A DNA stretch of 64,000 nucleotides from the NCBI RefSeq assembly GCF_003334355.1, contig NZ_QOWP01000022.1. One strand, given 5' to 3'. Shown one piece after another: positions 2 to 51,784 of this stretch. The stretch is from Escherichia coli (lineage in GTDB: Bacteria; Pseudomonadota; Gammaproteobacteria; Enterobacterales; Enterobacteriaceae). The notes below the pieces were generated by a model. That model ran no database searches. It was not told the origin of the DNA and saw only the letters and a list, made by a program, of their open reading frames with translations. Made by a program: the position numbers and the translations under genes. The number at the start of each line of letters is the position of its first letter. Positions within the stretch are counted from its first letter, which is position 1.

Positions 2-211
2 CTTGAGCTAGCCTGCCAGCATCATTTAATGCTGACACTTGAGCTGAAAGATGGCGAAAAATTGCAGGCAAAAGCCAGCGATTTAGTCTCCCGCAAAAAT
101 GTGGAGTATCTGGTCGTCGAGGCCGCTGGCGAAACCCGTGAGCTACGTCTGGATAAAATTACCAGCTTTAGCCACCCGGAAATCGGTACGGTGGTGGTGA
201 GCGAGTCCTGA
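2..211 (+). CDS. rof: Rho-specific transcription termination inhibitor Rof (YaeO); 5' end cut by window start
   Basis: Translation ...LELACQHHLMLTLELKDGEKLQAKASDLVSRKNVEYLVVEAAGETRELRLDKITSFSHPEIGTVVVSES matches Rof C-terminus as I recall it; frame continues open to window edge. Confidence 0.9.
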   Translation, partial: LELACQHHLMLTLELKDGEKLQAKASDLVSRKNVEYLVVEAAGETRELRLDKITSFSHPEIGTVVVSES

Positions 212-220
212 TTGACTTTC

Positions 221-253
221 GCCGGATGCGACGTTTGATGCGTCTTATCCGGC
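221..253. repeat. REP-like palindromic element between convergent rof and tilS
   Basis: gccggatgcgacg...cgtcttatccggc imperfect palindrome typical of REP units. Confidence 0.6.
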
Positions 254-259
254 TTTCAC

Positions 260-1558
260 TTAACTAAGCGTTTTCTGCCAGACAAAACTTACGCCATTCT
301 CACCTTCAGCCACACCTTCTTGCGTCACAAATACCCCTGCCGCCGCAATCAGCGTTTCGCCATAAAACAGCAGTGGCGTGGTGTCACGTAGCCACGGCGG
401 CACGCCTAACTCTTGCCAGATTTTCTTCAGCTTACGTCCGCCGTTGCGCCCGACAATATGCAGCAATCCTGCCGCTTTGAAACGCACGCTGACCGCTTCG
501 TCTGCACGCGGAGGGCGAATATCGCCTCCCGCAGTAAGCTGTACGCTTCCCAGCCCCGCCGGTAATTCCAGCGGTTGTAGCCACGTCTGCCACGGCACAA
601 TGGTTTCACTTTGCCCGGTGACGGATTTAATCCACCACAGTTGCGACTGATATCGGCGGATTTCAAACGCGCCCAAGCGTAAACAGGGGGAGGCATCTTC
701 CCGCGCCAGCGCCACTTCCTGCCAGATCCGCACCAGCGCGTCGCGGGAAGGCATTGGTGCATTCTGCCCTGCCAGCCAGCGACGGATAATCGCCGCGCGG
801 CGGGCATCACTCATCGCCAGCATTGGCGCAATCTGCAGCGTCCCCTGCGACGTTTGGCAGTGTGCTAAATCATCCGCCAGCAGTTCATCCAACAGACTCT
901 CTTGTTCAGCACAAAGTGCGGCGCTGCGGGCCGTTGCTTCGGCAAAATGCGGCCAACGCTGCTGCAATAACGGCACTACGCGCAGGCGCAGAAAGTTACG
1001 ATCGTATGAGTCGTCCTGATTACTTTCGTCTTCAATCCAGCGTAAACCATGCGCCAATGCCCACTGCGCCAGTTCCCCCCGCGTGCGGGCAAGCAACGGG
1101 CGGATAAGCCGTGTTCCGGCAAACTCCGAAACTTCCGCCATAGCCGAAAGCCCGGCAGGGCCGCTACCGCGTTTTAGCGCCAGCAGAAAGGTTTCACATT
1201 GATCGTCGAGATGTTGCGCGGTGACCAGCACTTCGCCGGGCAATAGGGTACGGGCAAATGCCTGATAACGCGCCTGCCGCGCCTGGGCCTCAATCCCCAG
1301 CCCCTCTTGCGCAAGTTGTACGCATTCGACCACCAGCGGCACCTGCCACTGTTGGCAGACGTTTTCGCAATGCGTAACCCAGGCATCGGCATTGGCACTT
1401 AAACCGTGATGCACATGAATAGCGCGCAGAGTGACGCCCGGATTTTCCGTCCGCCACTGCACCAACTGATGCAGCAGAACGGTGGAGTCAAGCCCGCCGC
1501 TAAAGGCCACCAGAATCTGGCGTGAGGTGAGAAGTTGTCTATTGAGCGTGAGTGTCAT
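260..1558 (-). CDS. tilS: tRNA(Ile)-lysidine synthetase
   Basis: 432 aa ORF; SGGLDS PP-loop motif near N-terminus; recognised TilS/MesJ sequence. Confidence 0.95.
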
Positions 1559-1622
1559 GATGGTGCGATTTTACAGTAGCAATGCCCGGCACGTTACCGG
1601 GCAAATGCGGCGATGACAAGCC

Positions 1623-2012
1623 TTACTGCTCATACAGTTCCAACGGCAGCCCGTCCGGATCGTTAAAGAAGGTGAAGCGTTTTTGCGTGTATGGATCGAC
1701 ACGGATGGCTTCACACTTCACGTTATGGCTTTCAAGGTGCGCCACTGCCGCATCGATGTCATCAACGCTAAAAGCCAGATGACGCAGGCCGCAAGCTTCC
1801 GGTCGGCTGGGGCGCTCCGGCGGGAACGGAAAAGAGAAAAGCTCAATCACATATTGCCCATTAAGCGCCAAATCCCCTTTCCACGAGTCGCGCGCTTCGC
1901 GATAGACTTCGCTTTGCAGCGTGAAACCAAGAATATCGCAGTAGAAAGCTTTGCTCACCGCATAATCCGTCGCAATAATCGCAATATGGTGAACCTGTTT
2001 TAAACTCAGCAT
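1623..2012 (-). CDS. yaeR: glyoxalase/VOC family protein YaeR
   Basis: ORF recognised as YaeR; start trimmed to MLSLKQVHH (129 aa) rather than upstream ATG. Confidence 0.85.
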   Translation of the reverse strand: MLSLKQVHHIAIIATDYAVSKAFYCDILGFTLQSEVYREARDSWKGDLALNGQYVIELFSFPFPPERPSRPEACGLRHLAFSVDDIDAAVAHLESHNVKCEAIRVDPYTQKRFTFFNDPDGLPLELYEQ

Positions 2013-2068
2013 AACGTCTCCTTTATTTGTTAACAGCACGTTACTCGCCCGGAAGCCGCTCTGGCAAG

Positions 2069-4210
2069 TTATCCCGCCATTTTTAGGACTCGTACGCGGT
2101 AAACGCCGTCTTCGTCCTGTTTCGCGCCGTGAATATCCGTTTCAAAACCGGGGTAATGTTGCCCTACGGAACAAAGCATCAGTAGAAAATCGAGTACCGT
2201 GCGGCTCTCTTTGGTCAGCATTTCTCCTGGCATCAACAGCGGTACGCCCGGTGGATAAGGCAGGATCATATTTGCCGATACTCTACCGACCAGTTGTTCC
2301 AGCGCAATGGTTTCTACTTCACCTTTAATCTGTCTCTGCCATGCCTGATGTGGCGTCATGATCATTTCCGGCAAAGTATCGAATGCCCGCAACATCAAAC
2401 CGGGAAGATCGTGTTTACGAATCAGCTTATGGATCCCTTGCGCCAGATCCTGGATACGCATATTGCGGTAGAAATCGGGATCTTCAGCATAGAGATCGGG
2501 TAGCATATTTTTGATCCGCAGGTTGAGATCGTAAGAGCGTTTAAATTCCGTCAACCCACGCAATAATCCCATTGCTTTGGTTTTATCGATACCAATACTA
2601 AAGAGAAACAGCAGGTTATAAGGGCCGGTTTTCTCTACTACGATCCCACGTTCGTCGAGGAATTTTGCCACCAGCGCCGCCGGGATCCCCTCCTCGCTCA
2701 TATTGCCCTGTTCGTCCATCCCCGGTGTCAAAATAGTGACTTTAACCGGATCGAGAAACATATGATCGGCATCCGCATCGTTAAAGCCGTGCCACTGTTC
2801 GCCAGGCGCAACGGGCCAGCATTCGGCTTCATCCACCTGCGGCGGTTGCCAGATATCGAAAAACCAACCGTCAGACTCTTCCCGCAACCGCTGGACCTCT
2901 TTGCGAAAATGCAGCGCCCGCTCCACCGAACGGTTAATCAGCCGTTTGCCCGGATTACCACGCAGCATCGCCGCCGCCGTCTCAACCGAAGCAACAATGG
3001 GATAACTGGGCGAGGTGGTGGTATGCATCATAAAGGCTTCGTTAAACGCCTCTTCGTCATACTCGCCTTTAATGTGGATCAGCGAAGCCTGCGATAACGC
3101 CGCCAGCATTTTGTGGGTCGATTGCGTTTCGAAGATCACTTTTCCCGCAACACGCTCGCCGCTCATACCACTTTTCCCCTGGTAGATCGGATGAAAATGG
3201 GTGTACGGCACCCAGGCGGAATCGAAGTGGATCGACGGGACATCCAGCGTCTGTTTGATCCAGTCGGTGTTGTAGAGCAAGCCATCATAGGTGGAGTTGG
3301 TAATCACCGCATGAACCGGCCATTGTGCCTGCGTGGTGGCAGCGACTTTCTCTTCGATGCTGTCGCGAGTAAATTCACGGCGCGGGATCCCACCAAGAAT
3401 CCCCAACGCATTACGCGTCGGTTTCAGCCAGACTGGCACTACATCGTTCATCATCAACAGATGCGCCAGCGATTTATGACAATTGCGGTCGATCAACAGC
3501 GTACTGCCGGATGGCGCGGCGTACATACCCACAATTTTGTTCGACGTCGATGTTCCGTTGGTAACGATATAACTCTGTTCCGCGCCAAAAGTCCGCGCGA
3601 TGTACTCTTCCGCTTCCAGGTGTGGCCCGGTGTGGTCGAGCAACGAACCAAGCTCGGTAACCGAAATAGAGACATCAGCCTTGAGGGTATTCCCGCCGAA
3701 AAAATCATAAAACAGACAGCCAACCGGGCTTTTTTGATAGGCGGTACCGCCCATATGCCCCGGCGTACAAAAGGTGTACTTCCGCTCTTTGACGTAGGTA
3801 AACAAGGCTTTCGTGAACGGCGGTGTAATGTTATCAAGATATTCGTCGGTGTACTGACGCATACGAATGGCGATATCTTCCGCCTGCCCCAGCGCATATT
3901 CAAAAAACCAGAGCGCCATCCGCATATCCTGCACGCTGACATCCATCGTCGAGTGGGTGTTGATGAAGGCATAAAGCGGGAGATATTCATTAAGCTGATT
4001 GATATCGCTACATAAATCGAGACTGTACTCATCCCAGTCAAAAATCACGCCGCAAATTCGAGGGTTATGTTCGATAAATTTCAGCAAATCAACGCTGTTT
4101 TGTGGCCAGATAATCTGAAAGCCTTGCGCCACCAGCGCCGACTCCAGTTCTTTGATGGGCTCATCTTTATAAAAGACGCCATGCGGTCCCATAATGGCAA
4201 TGATGTTCAT
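2069..4210 (-). CDS. ldcC: constitutive lysine decarboxylase
   Basis: 713 aa ORF, recognised LdcC sequence (PLP-dependent, STHK motif). Confidence 0.95.
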   Translation of the reverse strand: MNIIAIMGPHGVFYKDEPIKELESALVAQGFQIIWPQNSVDLLKFIEHNPRICGVIFDWDEYSLDLCSDINQLNEYLPLYAFINTHSTMDVSVQDMRMALWFFEYALGQAEDIAIRMRQYTDEYLDNITPPFTKALFTYVKERKYTFCTPGHMGGTAYQKSPVGCLFYDFFGGNTLKADVSISVTELGSLLDHTGPHLEAEEYIARTFGAEQSYIVTNGTSTSNKIVGMYAAPSGSTLLIDRNCHKSLAHLLMMNDVVPVWLKPTRNALGILGGIPRREFTRDSIEEKVAATTQAQWPVHAVITNSTYDGLLYNTDWIKQTLDVPSIHFDSAWVPYTHFHPIYQGKSGMSGERVAGKVIFETQSTHKMLAALSQASLIHIKGEYDEEAFNEAFMMHTTTSPSYPIVASVETAAAMLRGNPGKRLINRSVERALHFRKEVQRLREESDGWFFDIWQPPQVDEAECWPVAPGEQWHGFNDADADHMFLDPVKVTILTPGMDEQGNMSEEGIPAALVAKFLDERGIVVEKTGPYNLLFLFSIGIDKTKAMGLLRGLTEFKRSYDLNLRIKNMLPDLYAEDPDFYRNMRIQDLAQGIHKLIRKHDLPGLMLRAFDTLPEMIMTPHQAWQRQIKGEVETIALEQLVGRVSANMILPYPPGVPLLMPGEMLTKESRTVLDFLLMLCSVGQHYPGFETDIHGAKQDEDGVYRVRVLKMAG

Positions 4211-4264
4211 GTGTTCCTCCTGGAAAATCCTTCCTTAATCATAGCCTGCTCAAACCGTGGCGAT

Positions 4265-4293
4265 AAAAAAGGGCCACCGAAGTGACCCTTTTT
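4265..4293 (-). terminator. intrinsic terminator hairpin downstream of accA (A6-stem-T5, potentially bidirectional)
   Basis: aaaaaagggccaccgaagtgaccctttttc; GC stem with tetraloop flanked by A and T runs. Confidence 0.6.
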
Positions 4294-4308
4294 CAGAACT
4301 TTTGCGAA

Positions 4309-5268
4309 TTACGCGTAACCGTAGCTCATCAGGCGCTGATAACGACGATTTTTTAAATCTTCAGTGCTTAACACGTCGAGATCGGCCAGATCCGCCAACA
4401 GTTGCGCTTTCAACGATGCCGCCATCGCTTCCGGGTTACGGTGAGCACCACCCAGCGGTTCCGGGATGATGGAGTCGATCAGTTTTAGTTCTTTCAGACG
4501 CGGAGCGATGATACCCATCGCTTCAGCCGCCAGCGGCGCTTTATCAGCGCTCTTCCACAGAATGGACGCACAACCTTCCGGCGAGATAACGGAATAGGTG
4601 CTGTATTGCAGCATATTCACTTTATCGCCCACGCCAATCGCCAGCGCGCCGCCAGAACCACCTTCACCGATAACGGTACAAATAGTCGGTACGCTAAGGC
4701 GAGACATTTCACGCAGGTTGCGTGCAATGGCTTCAGACTGACCGCGCTCTTCTGCGCCCACGCCCGGATAAGCCCCCGGGGTGTCGATAAAGGTGATGAT
4801 TGGCATCTTAAAGCGTTCAGCCATTTGCATCAGACGCAGTGCTTTGCGGTAACCTTCTGGCGCTGGCATACCAAAGTTACGGCGAATTTTTTCTTTGGTT
4901 TCACGACCTTTTTGATGACCAATGATCATCACCGGACGACCATCGAGACGGGCGATACCACCGACGATAGCTTTATCGTCTGCATACGCGCGGTCGCCAG
5001 CCAGTTCGTCAAATTCATCAAATGCCAGGCGAACGTAATCCAGGGTATAAGGACGCTGTGGATGGCGTGCCAGTTGCGCAATCTGCCATGCACCGAGATC
5101 GGCGAAGATTTTACGTGTCAGTTCTACGCTTTTTTCACGCAGACGATGCACTTCTTCATCGATGTTAATATCCAGTTTCTCATCCTGACGGCTAACCGCA
5201 GTCAGAGAATCGATTTTCGCTTCCAGCTCTGCAATCGGCTGTTCAAAATCAAGGAAATTCAGACTCAT
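4309..5268 (-). CDS. accA: acetyl-CoA carboxylase carboxyltransferase alpha subunit
   Basis: 319 aa ORF recognised as AccA. Confidence 0.97.
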
Positions 5269-5280
5269 AGTATTCCTGTA

Positions 5281-8200
5281 TTAGTCAAACTCCAGTTCCA
5301 CCTGCTCCGAACCAATGAGGCCACGGAGATCGTTTAATAAACGATCGCTCGGAGAGACACGCCACGTCGCGCCAAAACGCAACCGCGCGCGTGCATCCGC
5401 CCTCTGATAGTAGAGATGTACTGGAATTGTCCCAGAGCGGTGGGGTTCCAGAGACTGACGGAGTCGGTTTAAAAGCTGGTCATCAATTTGCCTGTCCGTC
5501 AGCGAGATAGCAAGCCCGCGAGCATATTTTTCCCGGGCTTCGTCAATATCCATCACTTCGCGAGCGGTCATTTTAAGCCCACCGCTGAAGTCATCAAAGC
5601 TGACCTGTCCGCTGACGATAAGTATGCGGTCTTTTTCCAGCAATTGCTGGTATTTATCCAGGGCGTCAGTAAACAACATCACTTCCAGCCGCCCGGAACG
5701 GTCATCCAGCGTGCAGATACCGATACGATTGCCGCGCTTGGTGACCATAACCCGCGCGGCAACAACGAGCCCCGCAGCCGTGATGACTTTACCACGTTCT
5801 GTCGGGTGCATGTCTTTCAGCCTTACGCCTCCGACATAACGCTCAATCTCTTTTAAATACTGGTTGATAGGGTGTCCGGTCAGGTACAGGCCTAACGTTT
5901 CACGTTCCCCATCTAATACCACCTGCTCCGGCCACGGTTGGCAGCTGGCGTAGGATTGTTCAATTTGTTCCGGCTCTTCGGCCAGCACGCCGAACATATC
6001 GGCCTGACCGATAGCTTCCGCTTTCGCGTGTTGATCTGCCGCTTTTAACGCATCGCCCAGCGAGTTCATCAGCGCTGCGCGATGTGGCCCAAGACGGTCA
6101 AACGCCCCGGACATGATCAGTTTTTCCAGCACGCGACGGTTCAACTTTTTGGTGTCGGTACGGGCGCAGAGATCAAACAGTTCGCGGAAGTAGCCGCCTT
6201 TATTACGGGCTTCGATGATGGCCTCAATCGGACCTTCACCGACCCCTTTGATCGCGCCAATACCATACACGATTTCGCCGTCGTCGTTGACGTGGAAATG
6301 GTAAAGACCGGAGTTTATATCTGGTGGCAGGATTTTCAGCCCCATCCGCCAGCACTCATCCACCAGACCCACCACCTTCTCGGTGTTGTCCATATCGGCG
6401 GTCATTACCGCCGCCATAAACTCCGCAGGATAGTGCGCTTTCAGCCATAACGTTTGATATGACACCAAAGCATAGGCCGCAGAGTGCGATTTGTTAAATC
6501 CGTAACCAGCGAATTTCTCCACCAGGTCGAAGATTTTCATCGCCAGTTCAGCGTTGATTCCGTTCTTTTCTGCACCTTCAGCAAATACAGAACGTTGCTT
6601 AGCCATCTCTTCCGGCTTTTTCTTACCCATCGCACGACGCAGCATATCCGCGCCACCGAGGGTATAACCAGAAAGCACCTGCGCAATCTGCATGACCTGT
6701 TCCTGATACAGGATAATGCCGTAGGTTGGCTCCAGTACCGGTTTCAGGCTTTCATGCTGCCACTGTACGTCCGGATAGGAGATCTCTTCACGACCATGTT
6801 TACGGTCGATAAAGTTATCCACCATCCCTGATTGCAACGGACCGGGGCGGAACAGTGCCACTAGGGCGATCATATCTTCGAAGCAGTCAGGTTGTAGACG
6901 CTTGATCAGGTCCTTCATGCCGCGCGATTCAAGCTGGAATACCGCCGTGGTTTCCGAGCGTTGCAGCATGTCGAAGCTTTTCTTATCATCCAGCGGGATC
7001 GCAGCGATATCCAGCGGCGGCTCGCCATTCTTCGCCCGCCGCTTGTTGATCATCTCCAGCGCCCAGTTGATGATGGTGAGCGTACGCAAACCAAGGAAGT
7101 CGAACTTCACCAGTCCGGCGTATTCAACGTCGCTTTTATCAAACTGGGTGACCGGATGTTTGCCCTCTTCATCGCAGTAAAGCGGCGCAAAATCGGTAAT
7201 TTTGGTCGGCGCGATAACCACCCCACCGGCGTGCTTACCGGCGTTACGGGTGACCCCTTCCAGTTTGCGCGCCATGTCGATCAGCGCCTTAACTTCTTCA
7301 TCCGCTTCGTAGATTTCCGGCAGCTGCGGCTCGGCTTCAAACGCTTTCGCCAGCGTCATCCCCGGATCGGGCGGGATCAGTTTCGAGATACGATCGACAA
7401 AGCCGTACGGATGCCCCAGCACGCGGCCTACGTCGCGGATCACCGCTTTCGCCGCCATTGTACCGAAGGTGATGATCTGCGATACCGCATCACGACCGTA
7501 CATGTCCGCTACGTGCTCGATAACCTGATCGCGTTTCTCCATACAGAAGTCAACGTCGAAGTCAGGCATGGAGACACGTTCCGGGTTAAGGAAACGTTCG
7601 AACAGCAGGTCAAATTCCAGCGGATCGAGGTCGGTGATTTTCAGCGCGTAGGCCACCAGTGAACCCGCACCGGAGCCACGGCCTGGCCCTACCGGTACGC
7701 CGTTATCTTTCGACCACTGGATAAATTCCATAACGATGAGGAAGTAGCCCGGGAAGCCCATCTGGTTGATAACCTGAAGTTCAGTCTCCAGACGTTCGTC
7801 ATATTCCGGGCGGCGCTTAAGACGTTCTTCCTCATCAGGGAATAAAAAGGCCAGACGCTCTTCCAGGCCCTCTTTTGCACGCTTGACCAGATAATCTTCG
7901 GTGCTCATGTCCCCGGTCGGGAACTGCGGCAGGAAGTATTCACCAAGACGCACGGTTACGTTACAGCGTTTGGCGATCTCAACGGTGTTGGCAAGGGCTT
8001 CGGGGATGTCGGCAAACAGCTCACACATCTCCTCTTCGCTACGCATATATTGCTGCGGCGAATAGTTACGCGGGCGTTTAGGATCGTCGAGGGTAAAGCC
8101 GTCGTGGATCGCGACGCGGATTTCGTGTGCGTCAAAGTCGCTGCTGTCGATAAAGCGCACGTCGTTGGTCGCCACGACGGGCAAACCGCGCGCTTCCGCC

Positions 8201-31580: not shown

Positions 31581-33005
31581 TTACTGCATTAACAGGTAGA
31601 TGGTGCTGTCGCCGCGCTGAATGTTGAGTGCCAGCACAGACGGTTTGCTGTCGAGAACTTTACGCAGTTCAGCGATGTTTTTCACTGCCTGCTGGTTCGC
31701 GCCAATAATCACATCACCTTTCTTCAGGCCGATCTGCGCAGCCGGAGTGCCCGTTTTCACGTTGTTCACTACCACGCCCTGATCTTTGCCTTTGTTGCTC
31801 ATCTCAGCGCCTTCAATGCCGTTGAAGATGGAGCTGGAATCAACCTGATTCTGGCTGCTCTGCTGCAGTTCCAGGTTCACGTTAACCTGCTTACCGTCGC
31901 GCAGTAAGCCCAGGGTCAGTTTGCTGCCTACCGGCATAGTACCCACCTGAGCACGCAGTGCGGCAAAGCTGCTGATCGGCTTACCGTTCAGTGAGGTGAT
32001 CACATCACCCGCTTTAATGCCCGCTTTTGCAGCGGAGGAATTAGGCAGAACCTGGCTTACGAAAGCACCGCGCTGGGCGTCAACTTTCATCGCTTTCGCC
32101 AGTTCGGAGTTCAGCTCAGTCCCCATAATACCCAGCTCACCGCGTTTCACCTGGCCGTATTCCACCATCTGCGAGGTCAGGTTTTTCACCATGTTACTCG
32201 GGATAGCAAAACCGATACCGATGTTGCCGCCGTCCGGTGCGAGGATCGCGGTGTTGATACCGATCAGTTCGCCGTTCAGGTTAACCAGCGCACCACCGGA
32301 GTTACCACGGTTGATCGCTGCATCGGTCTGGATGAAGTTTTCGTAGTTTTCGGCATTCAGGCCGCTACGCCCCAGCGCAGAGACAATCCCGGAAGTTACC
32401 GTCTCGCCCAGACCAAACGGGTTACCAATCGCTACGGTGTAATCACCCACGCGCAGTGCATCAGAATCCGCCATCTTAATTGCGGTCAGGTTTTTCGGGT
32501 TCTGGATTTGGATCAGCGCGATATCAGAGCGCGGATCTTTGCCAACCATCTTCGCGTCGAACTTACGGCCATCGCTCAGTTGAACTTTAATGACCGTCGC
32601 GTTATCAACAACGTGGTTGTTGGTGACGACATAGCCTTTATCGGCATCAATGATGACGCCGGAACCCAGCGCCATGAATTTCTGTTGCTGGCCGCCACCA
32701 TTACCGCCCTGGCCACCCTGGCAGAACGGAGAGCTCTGGAACGGAGAACCTTCCTGGCAGAACGGAGAATCATCACCGAAGAACTGCTGGAAATTACGCG
32801 GCATACGCGGCGTATTAACGGTTGTGCTACCTTCTACGTTAATGCTGACCACTGAAGGCATCACCTTTTCGAGCATCGGTGCAAGGCTTGGCATCTGCTG
32901 GGCTGTCGTTGCTGAAGAAGTCTCAGCCGCCGTTGCAGAGAGCGGAGATAACGCCAAACCTAAACTCAGAGCCAGTGCACTCAGTGCTAATGTGGTTTTT
33001 TTCAT
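31581..33005 (-). CDS. degP: periplasmic serine endoprotease/chaperone DegP (HtrA)
   Basis: 474 aa ORF with signal peptide, trypsin-like domain (GNSGG) and two PDZ regions. Confidence 0.97.
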   Translation of the reverse strand: MKKTTLALSALALSLGLALSPLSATAAETSSATTAQQMPSLAPMLEKVMPSVVSINVEGSTTVNTPRMPRNFQQFFGDDSPFCQEGSPFQSSPFCQGGQGGNGGGQQQKFMALGSGVIIDADKGYVVTNNHVVDNATVIKVQLSDGRKFDAKMVGKDPRSDIALIQIQNPKNLTAIKMADSDALRVGDYTVAIGNPFGLGETVTSGIVSALGRSGLNAENYENFIQTDAAINRGNSGGALVNLNGELIGINTAILAPDGGNIGIGFAIPSNMVKNLTSQMVEYGQVKRGELGIMGTELNSELAKAMKVDAQRGAFVSQVLPNSSAAKAGIKAGDVITSLNGKPISSFAALRAQVGTMPVGSKLTLGLLRDGKQVNVNLELQQSSQNQVDSSSIFNGIEGAEMSNKGKDQGVVVNNVKTGTPAAQIGLKKGDVIIGANQQAVKNIAELRKVLDSKPSVLALNIQRGDSTIYLLMQ

Positions 33006-33050
33006 GTATTTCAGTCTCGATTAACAGATAACGCAAAATTGCTGTGTTCT

Positions 33051-46624: not shown

Positions 46625-49159
46625 TTAATTACTACCAAACATATCTTTAATCCAACCGGCTACACCGTCGCTGTCTTTCTGCTCTTGCTGAGCAGGTTGC
46701 TGTTGCGGCTGTTGCTGCGGCTGAGAAGACTGATCAAACGGATTGCTTGACGGCTGCTGCTGCATCTCACTCTGCTGGCACAGCGATTGCGGATCGCTGG
46801 TCCAGACCGGCAAGACACGCATGCCACCGCTGCAAACAAAGTTGCCGTCGTAGTCCACGCCCATATCTGCAATATCTTCTGGCGGAACAAGATTCAGCGG
46901 TGTTGGCGTCTGGTTAGCCAGATAACGCTGATAAATCGACATTGCCCCGCTGGCTCCATACAGTTTGGTCGGCTGGTTGTTATCACGGCCTACCCAGGTG
47001 ATGGTCACCGTGCTGCCGTCAATGCCCGCAAACCAGGTATCTACGTTATTGTTAGTAGTCCCTGTTTTCCCTGCCAGATGCAGGTTCGGGTATTTCGCCC
47101 CAAGCTGACGACCCGTACCGCGTTGTACAACCTGCTGCATGGTCCATAGTGTCAGATACGCCGCCTGCGCCGGAACAGCGCGTTCCGCCTGCGGGAAGCT
47201 CTGATACAGCACTTTGCCATCTTCCGCGATTACCGAACGCAGCGCAGAAAGCGGTGCACGGTTACCACCGCTGGCGATGGTCTGGAATGCCTGCGCCACT
47301 TCGATTGGCGTTAAGTTCAACGCCCCCAGCAGCATCGCCGGAACCGGATGCAGCTGATCTTTCGGCACGCCCAGTTTGATCCAGGTCTCCGTAACCGCAG
47401 GCAGCCCCAGTGCCATCCCCAGATTTACCGTCGGCACGTTCATCGAACGGGTCAACGCATCCACCAGCATCACTCTGCCACTTTCGCTATAACGACGATC
47501 ATCGTTCTGCGGTGACCAGACCTGGCCATTCGGCTGACGCAGCGCGATTGGCGCATCCGCAATCCACGTGTTCAGGCGATAGATTTTCGGCTGGCTTAAG
47601 GCAGTCAGATAAGTCGCTGGTTTTGCAAGGGAACCAATCGAACGACGCGCCTGCATCGCACGATTGTAGCCCGCAAACTGCGGCTCAGAACCTCCGACCA
47701 TCGCACGAACTTCACCACTAAAGCGGTCGACGACCACAATCGCGGTTTCCAGATCGCTCAGCTTACGCTGTTTCTTCAGTGCCGGAATGCCTTCCACGGC
47801 GGCTTTTTCTGCCGCGTCCTGGGCCACCGAGTCAAAGGTAGTGAAGATCTTCACGCCGGACAGATCTTTTACCTTATCGCCTAATTTCGCCTGCAACTCC
47901 TGACGCACCAGTTGCATAAAGGCTGGCTGTGGAGAGATTACCCCACCGCGCGGCTGTACGCCCAGAGGACGCGCGCTGAGCATTTCATACAGTTCACCAT
48001 CGATAATCTGCTGTTGTTGTAGCAAACGCAGCACCAGATTACGTCGCTCCAGCGCCAGTTTCGGGTTACGCCACGGGTTGTAGATGGACGCCCCTTTCAC
48101 CATGCCAACTAACAGCGCCTGCTGGTCAAGGCTCAATTCTTCTACCGGGCGACCAAAGTAGTACAGGCTCGCCAGCGGGAAGCCACGAATTTCGTTGTCG
48201 CCGCTCTGACCGAGATACACCTCATTCATATACAGCTCAAGAATGCGATCTTTGCTGTAACGCGCATCCATGATCAACGCCATATAGGCTTCGTTCGCTT
48301 TACGCCAGTAAGAGCGCTCGCTGGAGAGGAACAGGTTTTTCACCAGCTGTTGCGTCAGCGTACTCGCACCCTGCACCGTGCGACCTGCGGTCAGGTTTGC
48401 CAGCACCGCACGTCCGATGGAGTAGAGGCTGATGCCGTCATGCTCGTAAAAATGACGGTCTTCTGTCGCCAGCAAAGTATCCACCAGCAAATCAGGGAAA
48501 CCACTGCGCGGCACAAACAGACGTTGTTCACCGTTTGGCGAGGAGATCATGGTGATCAGGCGCGGATCAAGACGGAAGAAGCCGAACTGACGGTTGTTCT
48601 CCATATTGACGATGGTCGCCAGATGATCGCCATCAAAGGTCAAACGCGCACGCACCTGCCCTTCTTTGCTGTCCGGGAAATCAAACGGACGGCGGATCAT
48701 CTCAATGCTGTTAGCCTGCACGGTAAATTCGCCAGGACGGGTCATTTTCGACACCTGACGATACTGGGTCGCCTCCAGCAGCTTCACCATCTCGTTCTTG
48801 CTGATGGTCATGTCTGGCTCAAGATTGACCATTCGGCCATAAACTGCCGCAGGCAGTTGCCAGACCTTGCCATCAATACGGCTACGAATTTTTTGATCGA
48901 GATAAACGCCGTAAATGGCGATCAGCACGGCAAAAACGATAGCCAGTTTTAGCAGTAGCCATAGCCAGCCGCGTTTGCCACGAGGCTTACGCCCTTTGCC
49001 TTTGCCCTTACCTTTGCGCGGCATCGGTTCTTCATCCTCATAGTCATCATAATCGTCGTAATCATCGTCATCTTCGTAACGACGACGGCTTACCTTTTGT
49101 TTGACCGGACGCGTCGGTTTCCCTTTGCGTCCAATTGGCTCGCGGTCATTCCCGGCCAT
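46625..49159 (-). CDS. mrcB: penicillin-binding protein 1B (bifunctional glycosyltransferase/transpeptidase)
   Basis: ORF recognised as PBP1b; start trimmed to [14 protein letters not shown] (844 aa). Confidence 0.95.
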
Positions 49160-49256
49160 GCTTTTTCTCCGCAATATTCAGGCGCAAAAGCCCGATTTTC
49201 TGTTCTTCTGTTACAAGACAGAAGAAGATATCTCTCAAAATTTGTGCTCGATCGGT

Positions 49257-49345
49257 CCCCTCTCCCTTGAGGGAGAGGGTTAGGGTGAGGGTGAACGTGC
49301 GCGCTGATGCCCTCACCCCGGCCCTCTCCCACAGGGAGAGGGCGA
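49257..49345. repeat. two GC-rich repeat units in inverted orientation (boxC-like) between mrcB and hrpB
   Basis: ccctctcccttgagggagagggttagggtgaggg and its near-identical inverse ccctcaccccggccctctcccacagggagagggc. Confidence 0.6.
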
Positions 49346-49354
49346 AAACCAACC

Positions 49355-51784
49355 TTACGAATACTTTTTCGTCCGTCGCGTCGGTGCAGTGTTTGCCGGG
49401 TCGTCCGGCCAGACATGTTTGGGATAACGCCCTTTCATCTCTTTTTGCACCTCACGGTACGCTCCTTTCCAGAAGGCGCTCAAATCTCGTGTGATTTGTA
49501 ATGGCCTTTGGGCAGGGGAAAGCAACTCCAGCACCAGCGGCACGCGCCCCTGGGCGATCGTCGGATTGGTGGCCTCACCAAACATCTCCTGCATTCTCAC
49601 CGCCAGCGCGGGCGGGTTATCTTCATGATAACGAATGGCGATCCGGCTTCCCGTCGGCACAGTGTAATGCGCAGGCAATTCACTATCCAGACGTTGCTGC
49701 ATTCCCCAATCAAGTAATCCGCGTAGTGCCTGATAAATGTCGAGTGATTTCAGGCCGCGTAGTGAATGCACGCCGGTCATATGTGGCAGCAGCCACGTTT
49801 CCAGCGTCGCCAACAAACTTTCATTATCAACCGCAGGCCAGTCATATTCCGGCAACCACTTTGCGGCGCATAACAAACGCAAGCGTAGCTGTTCCGCTTC
49901 CGCCGTCCAGTTGAGCACGCTTAAACCTTTATCACGGATGCCATTAAGCATCGCCTGATGCAACTCGTCTTCTGACGGTTTCGCCAACGTCTGCACTTTC
50001 ACCGTCAACTGACCGATTTGCAGCCGACGCCAGGCTTTCAGCGTACCTTGCGCGTCATCCCATTCCACGGTGTCAGATTGCTGCACCAGCTGCGGACAGC
50101 GTCGCACTAATTCATCAATATCGACCGGTAGCGCCAGTAAAATCCGCGCATCCGGCGAGGCGCTGCCCTGCAATAATAACGGTGCGATCAACCATTCGTG
50201 GCGGCTTAGCGCGTCGTCGGCATCGAGCATCGCTCCCATGCCGTTTGCCAGTTGATAGCGTCCATCTTGCCCACGGCGGCGAGCAATGCGATCGGCAAAC
50301 GCCCCGGCAAGTAGCGGCGCGATAAGCGAACTGTCTGCCTCACCGCCGCGTACGTTTAAGCGTTTTAACAGTTGCTGACTACGTTGCTGCCAGGCTGGTT
50401 GATTGCGCGAAAACGCCACGCCCAGGTCACTATTGCCCATCCGTGGCGGCTCTTCGAGAATGGCGGCAATTTTTGCCGCGGTAGCAGCTTCGTCGTCGTT
50501 CTTCGCGCTAACCAGCATTGCCGCTAAACGCGGATCGTTACCCAGCGCTGCCATTTTTTGCCCTTGCGCACTAAGCCGTTCACCGTCCAGCGCCCCCAGC
50601 ATCCGTAACAGGCGTTTCGCGGCCAGTAGATTCACCGTTGGCGGTTGATCCAGCCAGCTCATCTGCGTCGGATCGCTGCATCCCCATTGCAGTAATTCCA
50701 TCAGCAAACCGGAAAGATCGCTTTGTAATATTTCCGGTTCACTTTGCGCCGCGGCGCGTTCTGCTTGTTCCTTGGCGATTAAATGCAGGCAGATACCCGG
50801 CTCCAGACGCCCGGCGCGCCCGGCACGCTGCGTCATGGATGCCTGGCTAACGCGTTGAGTAATCAGCCGCGTAAGCCCCGTGCGCGGATCAAAGCGCGCC
50901 ACACGCTCCTGGGCACAATCCACCACCAGACGAATACCTTCGATGGTTAAACTGGTTTCAGCAATATTGGTCGCCAGCACCACTTTGCGCATCCCTTGCG
51001 GTGCCGGGAGGATCGCTTTTCGCTGATCGTTCAGCGACAACGCGCCATACAGCGGGCAGAGCAACACATCACTGCCGATGCGCGAAGCCAGTTGTTCCTG
51101 CACACGCTGAATTTCTCCGACGCCAGTTAAAAATAACAGTAATGATCCACTTTCCTGACGCAGCATTTCGGCGGTGGCAACCGCGACGGCTTCGTCAAAA
51201 CGCTGATGCGCGGGCAGCGGTAAATAACGGCGTTCAACCGGAAACGAGCGCCCTTCTGAGATGACGACGGGCGCTTCTGGCAGCATTTGCTGCAAGCGGT
51301 CGTTGTCCAGCGTAGCCGACATAATCAGCAGTTTAAGGTCATCACGCAGACCTTGTTGCACATCGAGTAACAGCGCCAACGCCAAATCCGCCTGCAAGCT
51401 GCGCTCATGAAATTCATCAAGGATCACCAGTCCAACACCGCTCAGTTCCGGGTCACGCTGGATCATCCGCGTCAGCACGCCTTCGGTAACTACTTCCAGG
51501 CGGGTATTCGGCCCGACGCAGTTTTGCGCACGCATCCGGTAGCCAACGGTATCGCCTGGCTTTTCGTTAAGCAGCTCCGCCAGCCGTTGCGCGACGTTAC
51601 GCGCCGCCAGACGACGCGGCTCCAGCAGGATAATTTTTCCGTTAATGCCGGGATGCGCCAGCAATTGCAGCGGCAGCCAGGTTGATTTCCCGGCCCCGGT
51701 CGGCGCACTTAATAATACCTGCGGCGCACAATCGAGAGCGGTAAGTAATTCAGGTAAGACGGCAGCAACGGGCAACGATGACAC
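49355..51784 (-). CDS. hrpB: ATP-dependent RNA helicase HrpB (GTG start)
   Basis: DEAH-box helicase motifs (GAGKST, DEFHER); start placed at GTG giving MSSLPVAAVLPELL (809 aa). Confidence 0.9.
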   Translation of the reverse strand: MSSLPVAAVLPELLTALDCAPQVLLSAPTGAGKSTWLPLQLLAHPGINGKIILLEPRRLAARNVAQRLAELLNEKPGDTVGYRMRAQNCVGPNTRLEVVTEGVLTRMIQRDPELSGVGLVILDEFHERSLQADLALALLLDVQQGLRDDLKLLIMSATLDNDRLQQMLPEAPVVISEGRSFPVERRYLPLPAHQRFDEAVAVATAEMLRQESGSLLLFLTGVGEIQRVQEQLASRIGSDVLLCPLYGALSLNDQRKAILPAPQGMRKVVLATNIAETSLTIEGIRLVVDCAQERVARFDPRTGLTRLITQRVSQASMTQRAGRAGRLEPGICLHLIAKEQAERAAAQSEPEILQSDLSGLLMELLQWGCSDPTQMSWLDQPPTVNLLAAKRLLRMLGALDGERLSAQGQKMAALGNDPRLAAMLVSAKNDDEAATAAKIAAILEEPPRMGNSDLGVAFSRNQPAWQQRSQQLLKRLNVRGGEADSSLIAPLLAGAFADRIARRRGQDGRYQLANGMGAMLDADDALSRHEWLIAPLLLQGSASPDARILLALPVDIDELVRRCPQLVQQSDTVEWDDAQGTLKAWRRLQIGQLTVKVQTLAKPSEDELHQAMLNGIRDKGLSVLNWTAEAEQLRLRLLCAAKWLPEYDWPAVDNESLLATLETWLLPHMTGVHSLRGLKSLDIYQALRGLLDWGMQQRLDSELPAHYTVPTGSRIAIRYHEDNPPALAVRMQEMFGEATNPTIAQGRVPLVLELLSPAQRPLQITRDLSAFWKGAYREVQKEMKGRYPKHVWPDDPANTAPTRRTKKYS

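Follow-up and report, generated by a model that had tools for sequence, protein, structure and literature searches.

A head-to-head pair of BoxC repeats between hrpB and mrcB of Escherichia coli: most likely a dispensable, structure-prone insertion

Organization of the hrpB-mrcB spacer

In the window, by which we mean the whole 64,000-nt stretch of E. coli DNA analyzed here, two GC-rich repeat units of opposite orientation lie between hrpB and mrcB, the gene for PBP1B (Table 1). A 481-nt region around the spacer is 100% identical to one of the strains listed and 99.2% identical to MG1655. A first-pass annotation of this DNA had placed the repeats between 'convergent-then-tandem' genes. The tandem part of this description is right, and the convergent part is not: hrpB and mrcB are both on the minus strand. 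The pair is strictly intergenic, with the hrpB stop codon (49355) on one side and the mrcB ATG (49159) on the other, and it occupies the only 10-15 nt of the spacer that are not conserved, between that stop codon and a conserved mrcB leader.

The two near-identical inverse units reported in the first-pass annotation are real. One is found on the plus strand at 49258-49291 and reads CCCTCTCCC-TTGA-GGGAGAGGG-TTA-GGGTGAGGG; its inverse, at 49310-49342, reads CCCTCACCC-CGG-CCCTCTCCC-ACA-GGGAGAGGG when followed along the plus strand. All three 9-nt blocks are the same in both units without a single mismatch, and differences are confined to the loops. The distance between the units had been given as 12 bp and needs correction, as it amounts to 18 nt when measured from the 34-mers that the annotation itself proposed and to 16 nt by the published unit limits.

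Table 1. Features in and around the hrpB-mrcB spacer, in window coordinates
Feature	Position	Strand	Description
hrpB CDS	49355..51784	-	Upstream neighbor; stop codon TAA 49357-49355; from RefSeq K-12 locus and ORF list
Type B 5' extension	49343..49354	-	GGTTGGTTTTCG on minus strand; YTTTTCY common to family; missing from empty site
BoxC/TMECO type B unit	49309..49342	-	CCCTCTCCC-TGT-GGGAGAGGG-CCG-GGGTGAGGG-C on minus strand
Spacer between units	49293..49308		16 nt: GAAC (start of usual type A 3' flank), then GTGCGCGCTGAT(G), the conserved type B 3' extension (49297-49309)
BoxC/TMECO type A unit	49258..49292	+	C-block 49258-66, loop TTGA, G-block 49271-79, loop TTA, G-block 49283-91, then T
Type A 5' extension	49244..49257	+	GTGCTCGATCGGTC; family consensus roughly GYGCNC-N5-6-GTC
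Near-palindrome	49258..49343		One long imperfect hairpin possible in either strand (cruciform in duplex); outer, middle and inner helices of 9-10 bp
Conserved mrcB leader/promoter block	49160..49238	-	Outside BoxC; hairpin 49226-49218 / 49211-49203
mrcB (PBP1B) CDS	46625..49159	-	Downstream neighbor; ATG at 49159
68-aa ORF	49146..49352	-	TTG start; D8B36_18480 (GenBank CP032667); judged not a gene
119-aa ORF	49135..49494	+	TTG start; antisense to hrpB and mrcB; judged spurious
108-aa ORF	49090..49416	-	ATG start; out of frame over hrpB 3' end and mrcB 5' end; judged spurious

The units are previously catalogued BoxC elements

The first-pass annotation had likened the repeats to the BoxC family, and this identification turned out to be correct. 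Both units fit the published consensus 5'-CCCTCNCCC-N3-6-GGGNGAGGG-N3-GGGNGAGGG-3', and their sequences are identical to those of TMECO no. 1 and no. 2, which together cover MG1655 164547-164631 (Table 1 in Holder et al. 2015; NAR 43:10126, PMC4666352). Entry 1 of that table is CCCTCTCCCTGTGGGAGAGGGCCGGGGTGAGGGC (type B, 164547-164580) and entry 2 is CCCTCTCCCTTGAGGGAGAGGGTTAGGGTGAGGGT (type A, 164631-164597); the TMECO motifs are described there as elements 'earlier described as BoxC', also known as PIT. The same hrpB-mrcB copies were listed by Kaplan et al. 2016 (PMC5100583) as the putative G-quadruplex motifs HPG2 no. 5 (type B) and HPG1 no. 6 (type A), and Petrillo et al. 2008 (PMC2267715) included BoxC among the known stem-loop families of E. 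coli, giving it a length of 56 bp and about 32 copies. The names BoxC, PIT, TMECO and HPGQ are equivalent (Bergler 1992; Bachellier 1999; Hoyne and Maher 2000/2002; Holder 2015; Kaplan 2016). These GC-rich intergenic repeats, ~55 nt in length and typical of Enterobacteriaceae genomes, have been described four times under different names, and the hrpB-mrcB pair is already known to this exact copy, having been catalogued with coordinates at least twice (2015, 2016).

The arrangement of the pair is also typical of the family. The second loop is TTA in the unit at 49258-49292 (type A) and CCG in that at 49309-49342 (type B), and the two lie on opposite strands; BoxC pairs always consist of one A and one B unit in inverted orientation (Holder 2015, PMC4666352). 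We see no essential difference between this pair and other BoxC/PIT/TMECO/HPGQ elements. Four other K-12 pairs are likewise made of inverted B and A units. It does have the shortest spacer among the head-to-head pairs of K-12 (16 nt versus 26-27 nt), and the blocks of both of its units are perfect.

Eleven other K-12 BoxC loci were taken by their published coordinates and all units were set to one orientation, and the flanks of the window copies proved to be common to these 11 loci and to copies in Enterobacter, Leclercia and Lelliottia. Type A copies of K-12 have approximately GYGCNC-N5-6-GTC before them and GAACAGGCC..GCAC or GAAAAGGC after them; for type B copies the 5' flank is YTTTTCY and the 3' flank CATCAGCGCGCAC or something similar. 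The type A 5' extension was kept before nine out of nine type A copies examined (K-12 and window) and is missing from the empty site described below. Type B copies of Enterobacter, Leclercia and Lelliottia bear GTGCGGCCTGATG. Because the same extensions border other K-12 copies, the 16-nt 'spacer' represents the abutting flanks of two elements. These flanks extend the TMECO core of 34-37 nt to a BoxC element of ~56 bp (type B, GTGCGSSCTGATG ... RGAAAA; type A, GYGCNC..GTC ... GAACAGGCC), and the full insertion with its flanks runs from ~49244 to 49354, or about 110 nt. Position 49343 is C in the window versus A in K-12 and the other seven aligned strains.

Counting copies had been proposed in the first-pass annotation as a check, and the repeat is indeed multi-copy. 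A 111-nt query, run by blastn against 5426 complete E. coli genomes, matched 5332 of them at 57,589 places in all; the median genome has 11 places and the richest 25. MG1655 has 12 such places, and 23 TMECO units at 18 sites were reported for K-12 (Holder 2015, PMC4666352). Elsewhere in the 64-kb window there were no further BoxC copies or other repeats (chance expectation of the motif, 0.00-0.01), and a search of phage genomes for BoxC gave only 4 weak or partial matches.

Rfam searches of 48500-50000 (E-value mode) and of the whole window (gathering mode) returned no real family at the pair; the best look-alikes were microRNA-precursor hairpins, below threshold at 29.4 bits versus 74. A reading of the pair as a CRISPR repeat was rejected (CRISPR-DR57 match of 15.9 bits versus a threshold of 39), and REP/BIME and ERIC readings were ruled out by sequence.

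Predicted folding of the pair

The potential of the pair to form a cruciform or an RNA hairpin, which the first-pass annotation had pointed out, is supported by folding energies far better than those of shuffled sequences. As RNA, the minus (transcribed) strand of the pair reached -75.8 kcal/mol (z -8.55) and the plus strand -67.5 kcal/mol (z -6.49), and as single-stranded DNA either strand reached -33.5 kcal/mol (z about -6.5). A repeat finder detected a 27-nt inverted repeat whose arms are 18 nt apart, along with three perfect 10-nt inverted repeats that join C- and G-blocks both within and between the units. Folded alone with ViennaRNA, each unit gave a C-block/G-block hairpin with a free G-rich tail. 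That annotation had named a unique repeat lacking predicted secondary structure as the outcome that would speak against it, and the opposite was found on both counts, as the family is multi-copy and the folding strong.

Published experiments bear on which structures such units can adopt. In vitro, the isolated G-rich strand folds into an intrastrand purine-motif triplex, as seen by CD and NMR for type A and type B oligonucleotides (Tm 70-82 C; Holder 2015, PMC4666352). Addition of the complementary strand led to duplex, and DMS footprinting in vivo revealed no triplex (Holder 2015, PMC4666352). Switching between hairpin and G-quadruplex was observed in vitro by Kaplan et al. 2016 (PMC5100583).

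A natural allele series in E. coli

Of the 5426 complete E. coli genomes, 3536 contain a match to at least 80% of the 481-nt query over the spacer, and a 52-nt probe for the empty junction hit 1471 of the 5426 (27%), which is a lower bound. The empty site reads TGA-AGACCAAAGC-AAATTTGAGAG and is clean in ST131 as well as in at least 1471 of the 5426 genomes. Compared with it, the filled site has gained about 110 nt and had about 10 nt replaced, with no clear target-site duplication; the type A element ends in inverted GTGC...GCAC. By these sequence comparisons, the pair is a derived, dispensable insertion.

We aligned nine alleles (alignment A1). The full pair is present in the window, K-12 and O157:H7. 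A 12-bp deletion in O145:H28 has removed one G-block plus loop, a 12-bp duplication in USMARC-49610 has added a C-block plus loop, and 23CRST007 carries a 6-bp deletion inside the blocks. In 25-07338 and UTAK-22, two separate deletions of 63 or 64 bp have each left one plain CCCTCTCCC/GGGAGAGGG hairpin, and ST131 possesses the clean empty site. The ends of the 63- and 64-bp deletions fall exactly between two copies of AGGGAGAGGG or two copies of CCCTCTCCC, the kind of change expected of slippage or recombination between internal direct repeats of the palindrome, with slippage as the presumptive cause. The deletions reproduce the 'palindrome effect' reported by Holder et al. 2015 (PMC4666352) together with significantly higher sequence variability around TMECO loci. 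A structural cause of the instability of the site is putative, given that no triplex was detected in vivo by DMS footprinting (Holder 2015). Thousands of genomes carry the full pair with hardly any change (at least 99% identity). This series of full, collapsed, expanded and empty alleles is a ready resource for questions about BoxC slippage or the expression of hrpB and mrcB.

The palindrome of the pair also appears to break short-read assemblies.

The same spacer in other species

The C-terminus of HrpB was used to scan one genome per species, which gave 80 loci. In E. albertii, E. whittamii and Escherichia sp. MOD1-EC7003 the site is empty in the same way and the spacer measures 93 nt, which makes the empty state the ancestral one in Escherichia. 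A collapsed hairpin with flanks of the K-12 type is present in Escherichia sp. E1V33, and the species representative 'E. coli E69' has a pair in reversed orientation. At least one intact BoxC unit lies in the same spacer at 16 of the 80 loci, in Enterobacter, Leclercia, Lelliottia and other Enterobacteriaceae; degenerate or collapsed copies occur at about a dozen further loci, and arrays at two. No BoxC was found in the hrpB-mrcB spacer of the Citrobacter, Salmonella and Kosakonia loci or of most Kluyvera loci.

In all genera, every BoxC insertion is located upstream of a conserved block beginning TTGAGAG. The history of the site could be either one old insertion followed by many losses or repeated insertion into the sole unconstrained bases of the spacer. 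We ask whether BoxC may even be placed repeatedly and site-specifically in the short stretch that separates the stop codon of hrpB from the mrcB leader, and consider this improbable; at this position Escherichia bears BoxC units in both orientations, and close relatives have clean empty sites. If true, such placement would imply that BoxC, for which no transposase is known, is mobilized by a targeted mechanism.

Possible functions of the pair

We consider it highly probable that this head-to-head BoxC pair (one type B plus one type A unit) is a dispensable insertion, prone to structure and to slippage, and most likely without a required local function. It is a secondary insertion and would persist as a neutral or selfish repeat, neutrality being suggested by its dispensability. 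Its main consequence would be structural: each unit can form a hairpin with a G-rich tail, and the two units together make up a near-palindrome of ~85 nt. This palindrome and its internal direct repeats with a period of 12 nt would provoke replication slippage and deletion between the direct repeats, giving rise to the natural allele series, if slippage is indeed its cause. Read-through from hrpB would give the transcript a very stable 3' hairpin, which could slow 3' exonucleases in a REP-like manner. Any effect of the pair at the RNA level would be of a conjectural kind, possibly a stabilizing or insulating role at the 3' end of hrpB.

What has been published on the family is in line with this. 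As summarized by Holder et al. 2015 (PMC4666352), PIT elements block DNA polymerase in vitro and do not affect RNA polymerase or conjugation; the same summary credits Hoyne and Maher with finding no promoter or terminator activity. BoxC does not correlate with the function or the orientation of genes (Holder 2015, PMC4666352). A consensus scan of the hrpB-mrcB spacer detected neither a promoter nor a terminator, and in the literature on transcript 3' ends or transcription start sites at this spacer we found only a SELEX-based promoter prediction.

Some observations pull away from neutrality. Near-unchanged retention in thousands of genomes could point to function, and the occurrence of BoxC units in the same spacer of several genera could reflect selection or targeting rather than drift. 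Holoenzyme SELEX peaks are located ~27 nt away, and a multicopy ORF that spans the pair goes with an 18-fold drop of csgA.

Among the alternatives, a functional RNA element of hrpB survives best, and we still regard it as unlikely. The pair would then serve as a barrier to 3' exonucleases (a REP-like stabilizer), as an RNase III site or as a transcriptional insulator between hrpB and mrcB. The hairpin does begin 12 nt past the hrpB stop codon on the transcribed strand, where its stability of -75.8 kcal/mol applies; the E. coli spacer has no intrinsic terminator, unlike several Enterobacter and Leclercia loci; and hrpB and mrcB are separate units in RegulonDB-based tables (in Kaplan 2016, PMC5100583). 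Against such a role, the pair is missing in at least 27% of E. coli genomes and in sister species with the same flanking genes, its orientation and copy number differ between lineages, and PIT elements, in the account relayed by Holder et al., neither terminate transcription nor affect RNA polymerase. Copies of the pair are near-identical and offer no covariation as evidence of an RNA role.

It is very unlikely that the pair acts as a switch at the DNA level, whereby a triplex, G-quadruplex, hairpin or cruciform would modulate the adjacent mrcB promoter or the access of RNA polymerase. A switch between G-quadruplex, hairpin and duplex has been proposed for exactly these motifs (Kaplan 2016, PMC5100583), genomic SELEX peaks of the RpoD, RpoH, RpoF and RpoE holoenzymes all fall at MG1655 164658, and a predicted -35 element lies 5 nt past the end of the type A flank (49243-49239) and 19 nt from the type A unit. 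However, the resolution of SELEX is coarse, the oligonucleotides form duplex with their complementary strand and DMS footprinting gave no triplex in vivo (Holder 2015, PMC4666352). Moreover, BoxC shows no link to gene function or orientation, and the element is dispensable and flips its orientation between lineages.

A rho-independent terminator of hrpB is hardly credible: a GC-rich hairpin does stand directly past the stop codon, but GACCGAUCGAGCACAAAUUUUGAG follows it with no U-run at the stem (the transcribed strand past the hairpin reads GACCGATCGAGCACAAATTTTGAG, and the base lacks a U-run), the stem-loop of ~85 nt is far above terminator size, the scan was negative and PIT elements were without terminator activity in the work cited by Holder et al.

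Like REP/BIME (PU) elements, BoxC is a short, GC-rich, palindromic intergenic repeat of enterobacteria that often occurs in inverted pairs, folds into stable hairpins in the RNA of gene 3' ends and varies in presence between strains. Unlike them, it has an unrelated consensus and a three-block C/G/G architecture with a triplex-capable tail, is associated with no RAYT-type transposase, IHF site or gyrase site, and reaches only ~20-30 copies per genome versus hundreds for REP. MITE-like repeats (ERIC/IRU; Correia/NEMIS in Neisseria) are also small, non-coding intergenic insertions with palindromic ends and presence/absence polymorphism, whereas BoxC is not known to have a defined terminal inverted repeat with target-site duplication or a cognate transposase, and no such duplication could be made out at this site. 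With rho-independent terminators it has in common the GC-rich hairpin past a stop codon, and it differs from them by having no U-tract, by being far too long and by published tests without terminator activity. H-DNA, or intramolecular triplex, and the fragile sites of long palindromes resemble it in their purine/pyrimidine blocks, in a cruciform-capable palindrome and in deletions that remove or shorten the palindrome; BoxC differs in that its blocks are short (9 nt) and its in vivo structure is putative. The pair itself matters little, as the family has been known since the 1990s and this exact copy is catalogued.

Open reading frames over the pair

The three ORF entries over the pair listed in the first-pass annotation are present exactly as given there. 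They had been described as encoded entirely by the repeats, and this is an overstatement: the 85-nt pair makes up 24%, 41% and 26% of the 360-, 207- and 327-nt ORFs, respectively, and their remainder overlaps the mrcB leader and start and the 3' end of hrpB. In the 68-aa ORF, codons 1-33 come from the BoxC pair and its flanks (LVFALSLWERAGVRASARTFTLTLTLSLKGEGT) and the others from the mrcB leader, with the end 14 nt inside mrcB. The judgement that these ORFs are not genes was nevertheless borne out. NC_000913.3 carries no annotation for any of the three, and neither do the eight RefSeq records inspected; in RefSeq NZ_CP032667.1 the locus tags run from RS18475 to RS18485, with RS18480 skipped. 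The 119-aa and 108-aa products were not found in a collection of 15 billion proteins (by exact sequence for the 119-aa product). The repeat part is missing in sister species as well as in at least 27% of E. coli genomes, and the rest of the 68-aa frame is interrupted in 21 of 75 species. All three are very probably spurious.

The 68-aa ORF deserves closer attention, as D8B36_18480 was termed a phylogenetically conserved small protein in a 2024 paper (Biofilm 7:100180, PMC10869245), and its expression from pUC19 led to a white Congo-red phenotype and to an 18-fold lower csgA expression. It has also entered databases under the name 'hypothetical protein'; its cluster comprises 230 sequences from E. 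coli and Shigella, seen on at least 1000 contigs. That a real protein of 68 aa regulates curli expression is nonetheless scarcely plausible. Its TTG start lies 2 nt past the hrpB stop codon and has no spaced Shine-Dalgarno sequence. The N-terminal half is gone wherever BoxC is gone, including the sister species, and ST131 keeps only a 36-aa GTG ORF. The interruptions of the remaining frame in those 21 species are stops or 1-nt indels, and this part of the frame varies at the positions where the leader's RNA hairpin covaries. Homologues in the 15-billion-protein collection are restricted to E. coli and Shigella, and the ORF is unannotated in NC_000913.3, with its tag now skipped in NZ_CP032667.1.

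The multicopy phenotype need not come from a protein because the cloned fragment also holds the BoxC palindrome and the whole mrcB leader. The effect on curli may stem from either of these acting as DNA or RNA and not from a peptide. The pair shows how ORFs made by repeats enter databases as 'hypothetical protein', one of which has reached the experimental literature as a supposed small protein.

A covarying hairpin in the mrcB leader

In alignment A2, the 79 nt before the mrcB ATG are almost invariant across Enterobacteriaceae, except for a 9-bp hairpin (49226-49218 / 49211-49203). This hairpin varies by compensatory changes, and 96.5% of its cells in the alignment are paired, versus 52-69% in controls slid along the alignment. 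Changes on both sides were seen in 72 cells compared with 18.9 ± 6.6 in shuffles, none of 500 of which reached the observed value. Many of the pairs are U-G on the mrcB-sense strand, and the hairpin therefore points to RNA structure. Rfam has no family over it.

A sigma-70 promoter, TTGAGA-17-TGTAAC, was predicted just downstream of the BoxC pair (Shimada 2014). Its predicted -10 element overlaps the leader hairpin and is not conserved outside Escherichia. The hairpin may be an uncharacterized element of mrcB (PBP1B) expression. It is more novel than the BoxC pair beside it and a better lead to new biology in the regulation of PBP1B.

A covarying hairpin in the mrcB leader

Across 75 Enterobacteriaceae species loci, we found the leader of mrcB to be near-invariant. 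The 9-bp hairpin lying within it displayed strong compensatory covariation in the same loci, with paired cells amounting to 96.5% and 72 double changes observed versus 18.9 in shuffled controls (0 of 500 shuffles reached this count). U-G pairs are present in the hairpin on the sense strand, and a search of Rfam found no family for it. The hairpin is overlapped by TGTAAC, a −10 element predicted in print (Shimada 2014), and this predicted element is not conserved outside Escherichia. In addition to the annotated mrcB start listed in the table, an internal start for PBP-1B gamma is annotated in NC_000913.3.

Genomic SELEX peaks of the RpoD, RpoH, RpoF and RpoE holoenzymes coincide at MG1655 position 164658 (Shimada 2014, 2017), which corresponds roughly to window position 49230; the BoxC pair lies about 27 nt away. 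Such coincident peaks could represent structure-dependent, non-specific binding of RNA polymerase.

BoxC units in the same spacer and on plasmids

The same hrpB-mrcB spacer also holds BoxC units in Enterobacter, Leclercia, Lelliottia and other Enterobacteriaceae, most commonly as a single type B unit, oriented opposite to E. coli K-12. Other arrangements were found as well: five intact units in one spacer (L061); in another (L089), three tandem copies of a repeat of about 96 bp that contains a BoxC unit and a terminator-like hairpin; and an A+B pair flipped relative to that of the window in 'E. coli' E69 (L011) and a Lelliottia (L045). Several Enterobacter and Leclercia loci possess a classical intrinsic terminator after hrpB (e.g. 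aaagactttcctgtcaggaaagtcttgctgtttatttt); none of that kind was found in the E. coli hrpB-mrcB spacer.

The TMECO catalogue (Holder 2015) reported BoxC not to be associated with plasmids. On plasmid p30860-KPC we found a type A unit, CCCTCTCCCTTTGGGAGAGGGTTAGGGTGAGGG, which has the GCAC...GATC flank usual for such units; the start codon of an ISApu1 transposase gene lies about 230 nt away. This ISApu1-adjacent unit is carried by IncP/IncU KPC plasmids of Enterobacter, Klebsiella, Aeromonas and Citrobacter. BoxC was present in approximately 280 further plasmid records; on other plasmids it lies next to an ilvC fragment.

Insertion flank and the ORF created by the pair

In species with an empty site, the hrpB stop codon is followed on the sense strand by a native sequence that the flank GAAAACCAACC almost matches (TGAAAACCAAACC in E. 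albertii). This likeness hints at either inversion of the element together with its flank or microhomology at insertion. One sampled genome stood alone, E. coli CUVET25-1155 (NZ_CM172034.1), in which the 481-nt query spanning the spacer matched just 37 nt elsewhere; in this genome the junction of hrpB and mrcB may be absent or rearranged.

The 68-aa ORF falls in a cluster of 230 sequences restricted to E. coli and Shigella. Expression of this ORF (D8B36_18480) from pUC19 has been reported to repress curli expression (2024 paper, PMC10869245). Since conservation tests argue against its being a protein-coding gene, the curli phenotype may stem from the cloned DNA or RNA. Many of its deposited versions are 'partial', sitting where contigs of about 59-60 kb end, which suggests that the palindrome of the BoxC pair routinely breaks short-read assemblies.

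Features of the window, of a plasmid and of fetched loci (L-numbers, mostly hrpB-mrcB spacers of other species)
Feature	Location	Position	Strand	Remark
mrcB leader, near-invariant	window	49160-49238	minus	species comparison
9-bp hairpin inside mrcB leader	window	49226-49218 / 49211-49203	minus	compensatory covariation
mrcB start	window	49159-49174		mechanical ORF, TTG 49174; annotated, ATG 49159
68-aa ORF created by BoxC pair	window	49146-49352	minus	deposited as 'hypothetical protein'
GAAAACCAACC	window	49344-49354	antisense	adjoins hrpB stop codon
Type A BoxC unit	p30860-KPC, NZ_MN477223.1 (L101)	2503-2536		
BoxC-bearing hrpB-mrcB spacers	L011, L040-L065, L089 and others	~2255-2630 in each locus		
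Intrinsic terminators	L048, L054, L043, L065 and others	between BoxC and mrcB leader		
CssrA sRNA	window	23095-23204	-	Rfam, 136.6 bits, above gathering threshold
t44 RNA	window	24043-24129	-	Rfam, 83.5 bits, above gathering threshold
HtrA 5' UTR thermometer	window	33000-33045	-	Rfam, 77 bits, above gathering threshold

Other RNA features of the window

The matches to CssrA, t44 and the HtrA thermometer are known features and are unrelated to the BoxC pair.
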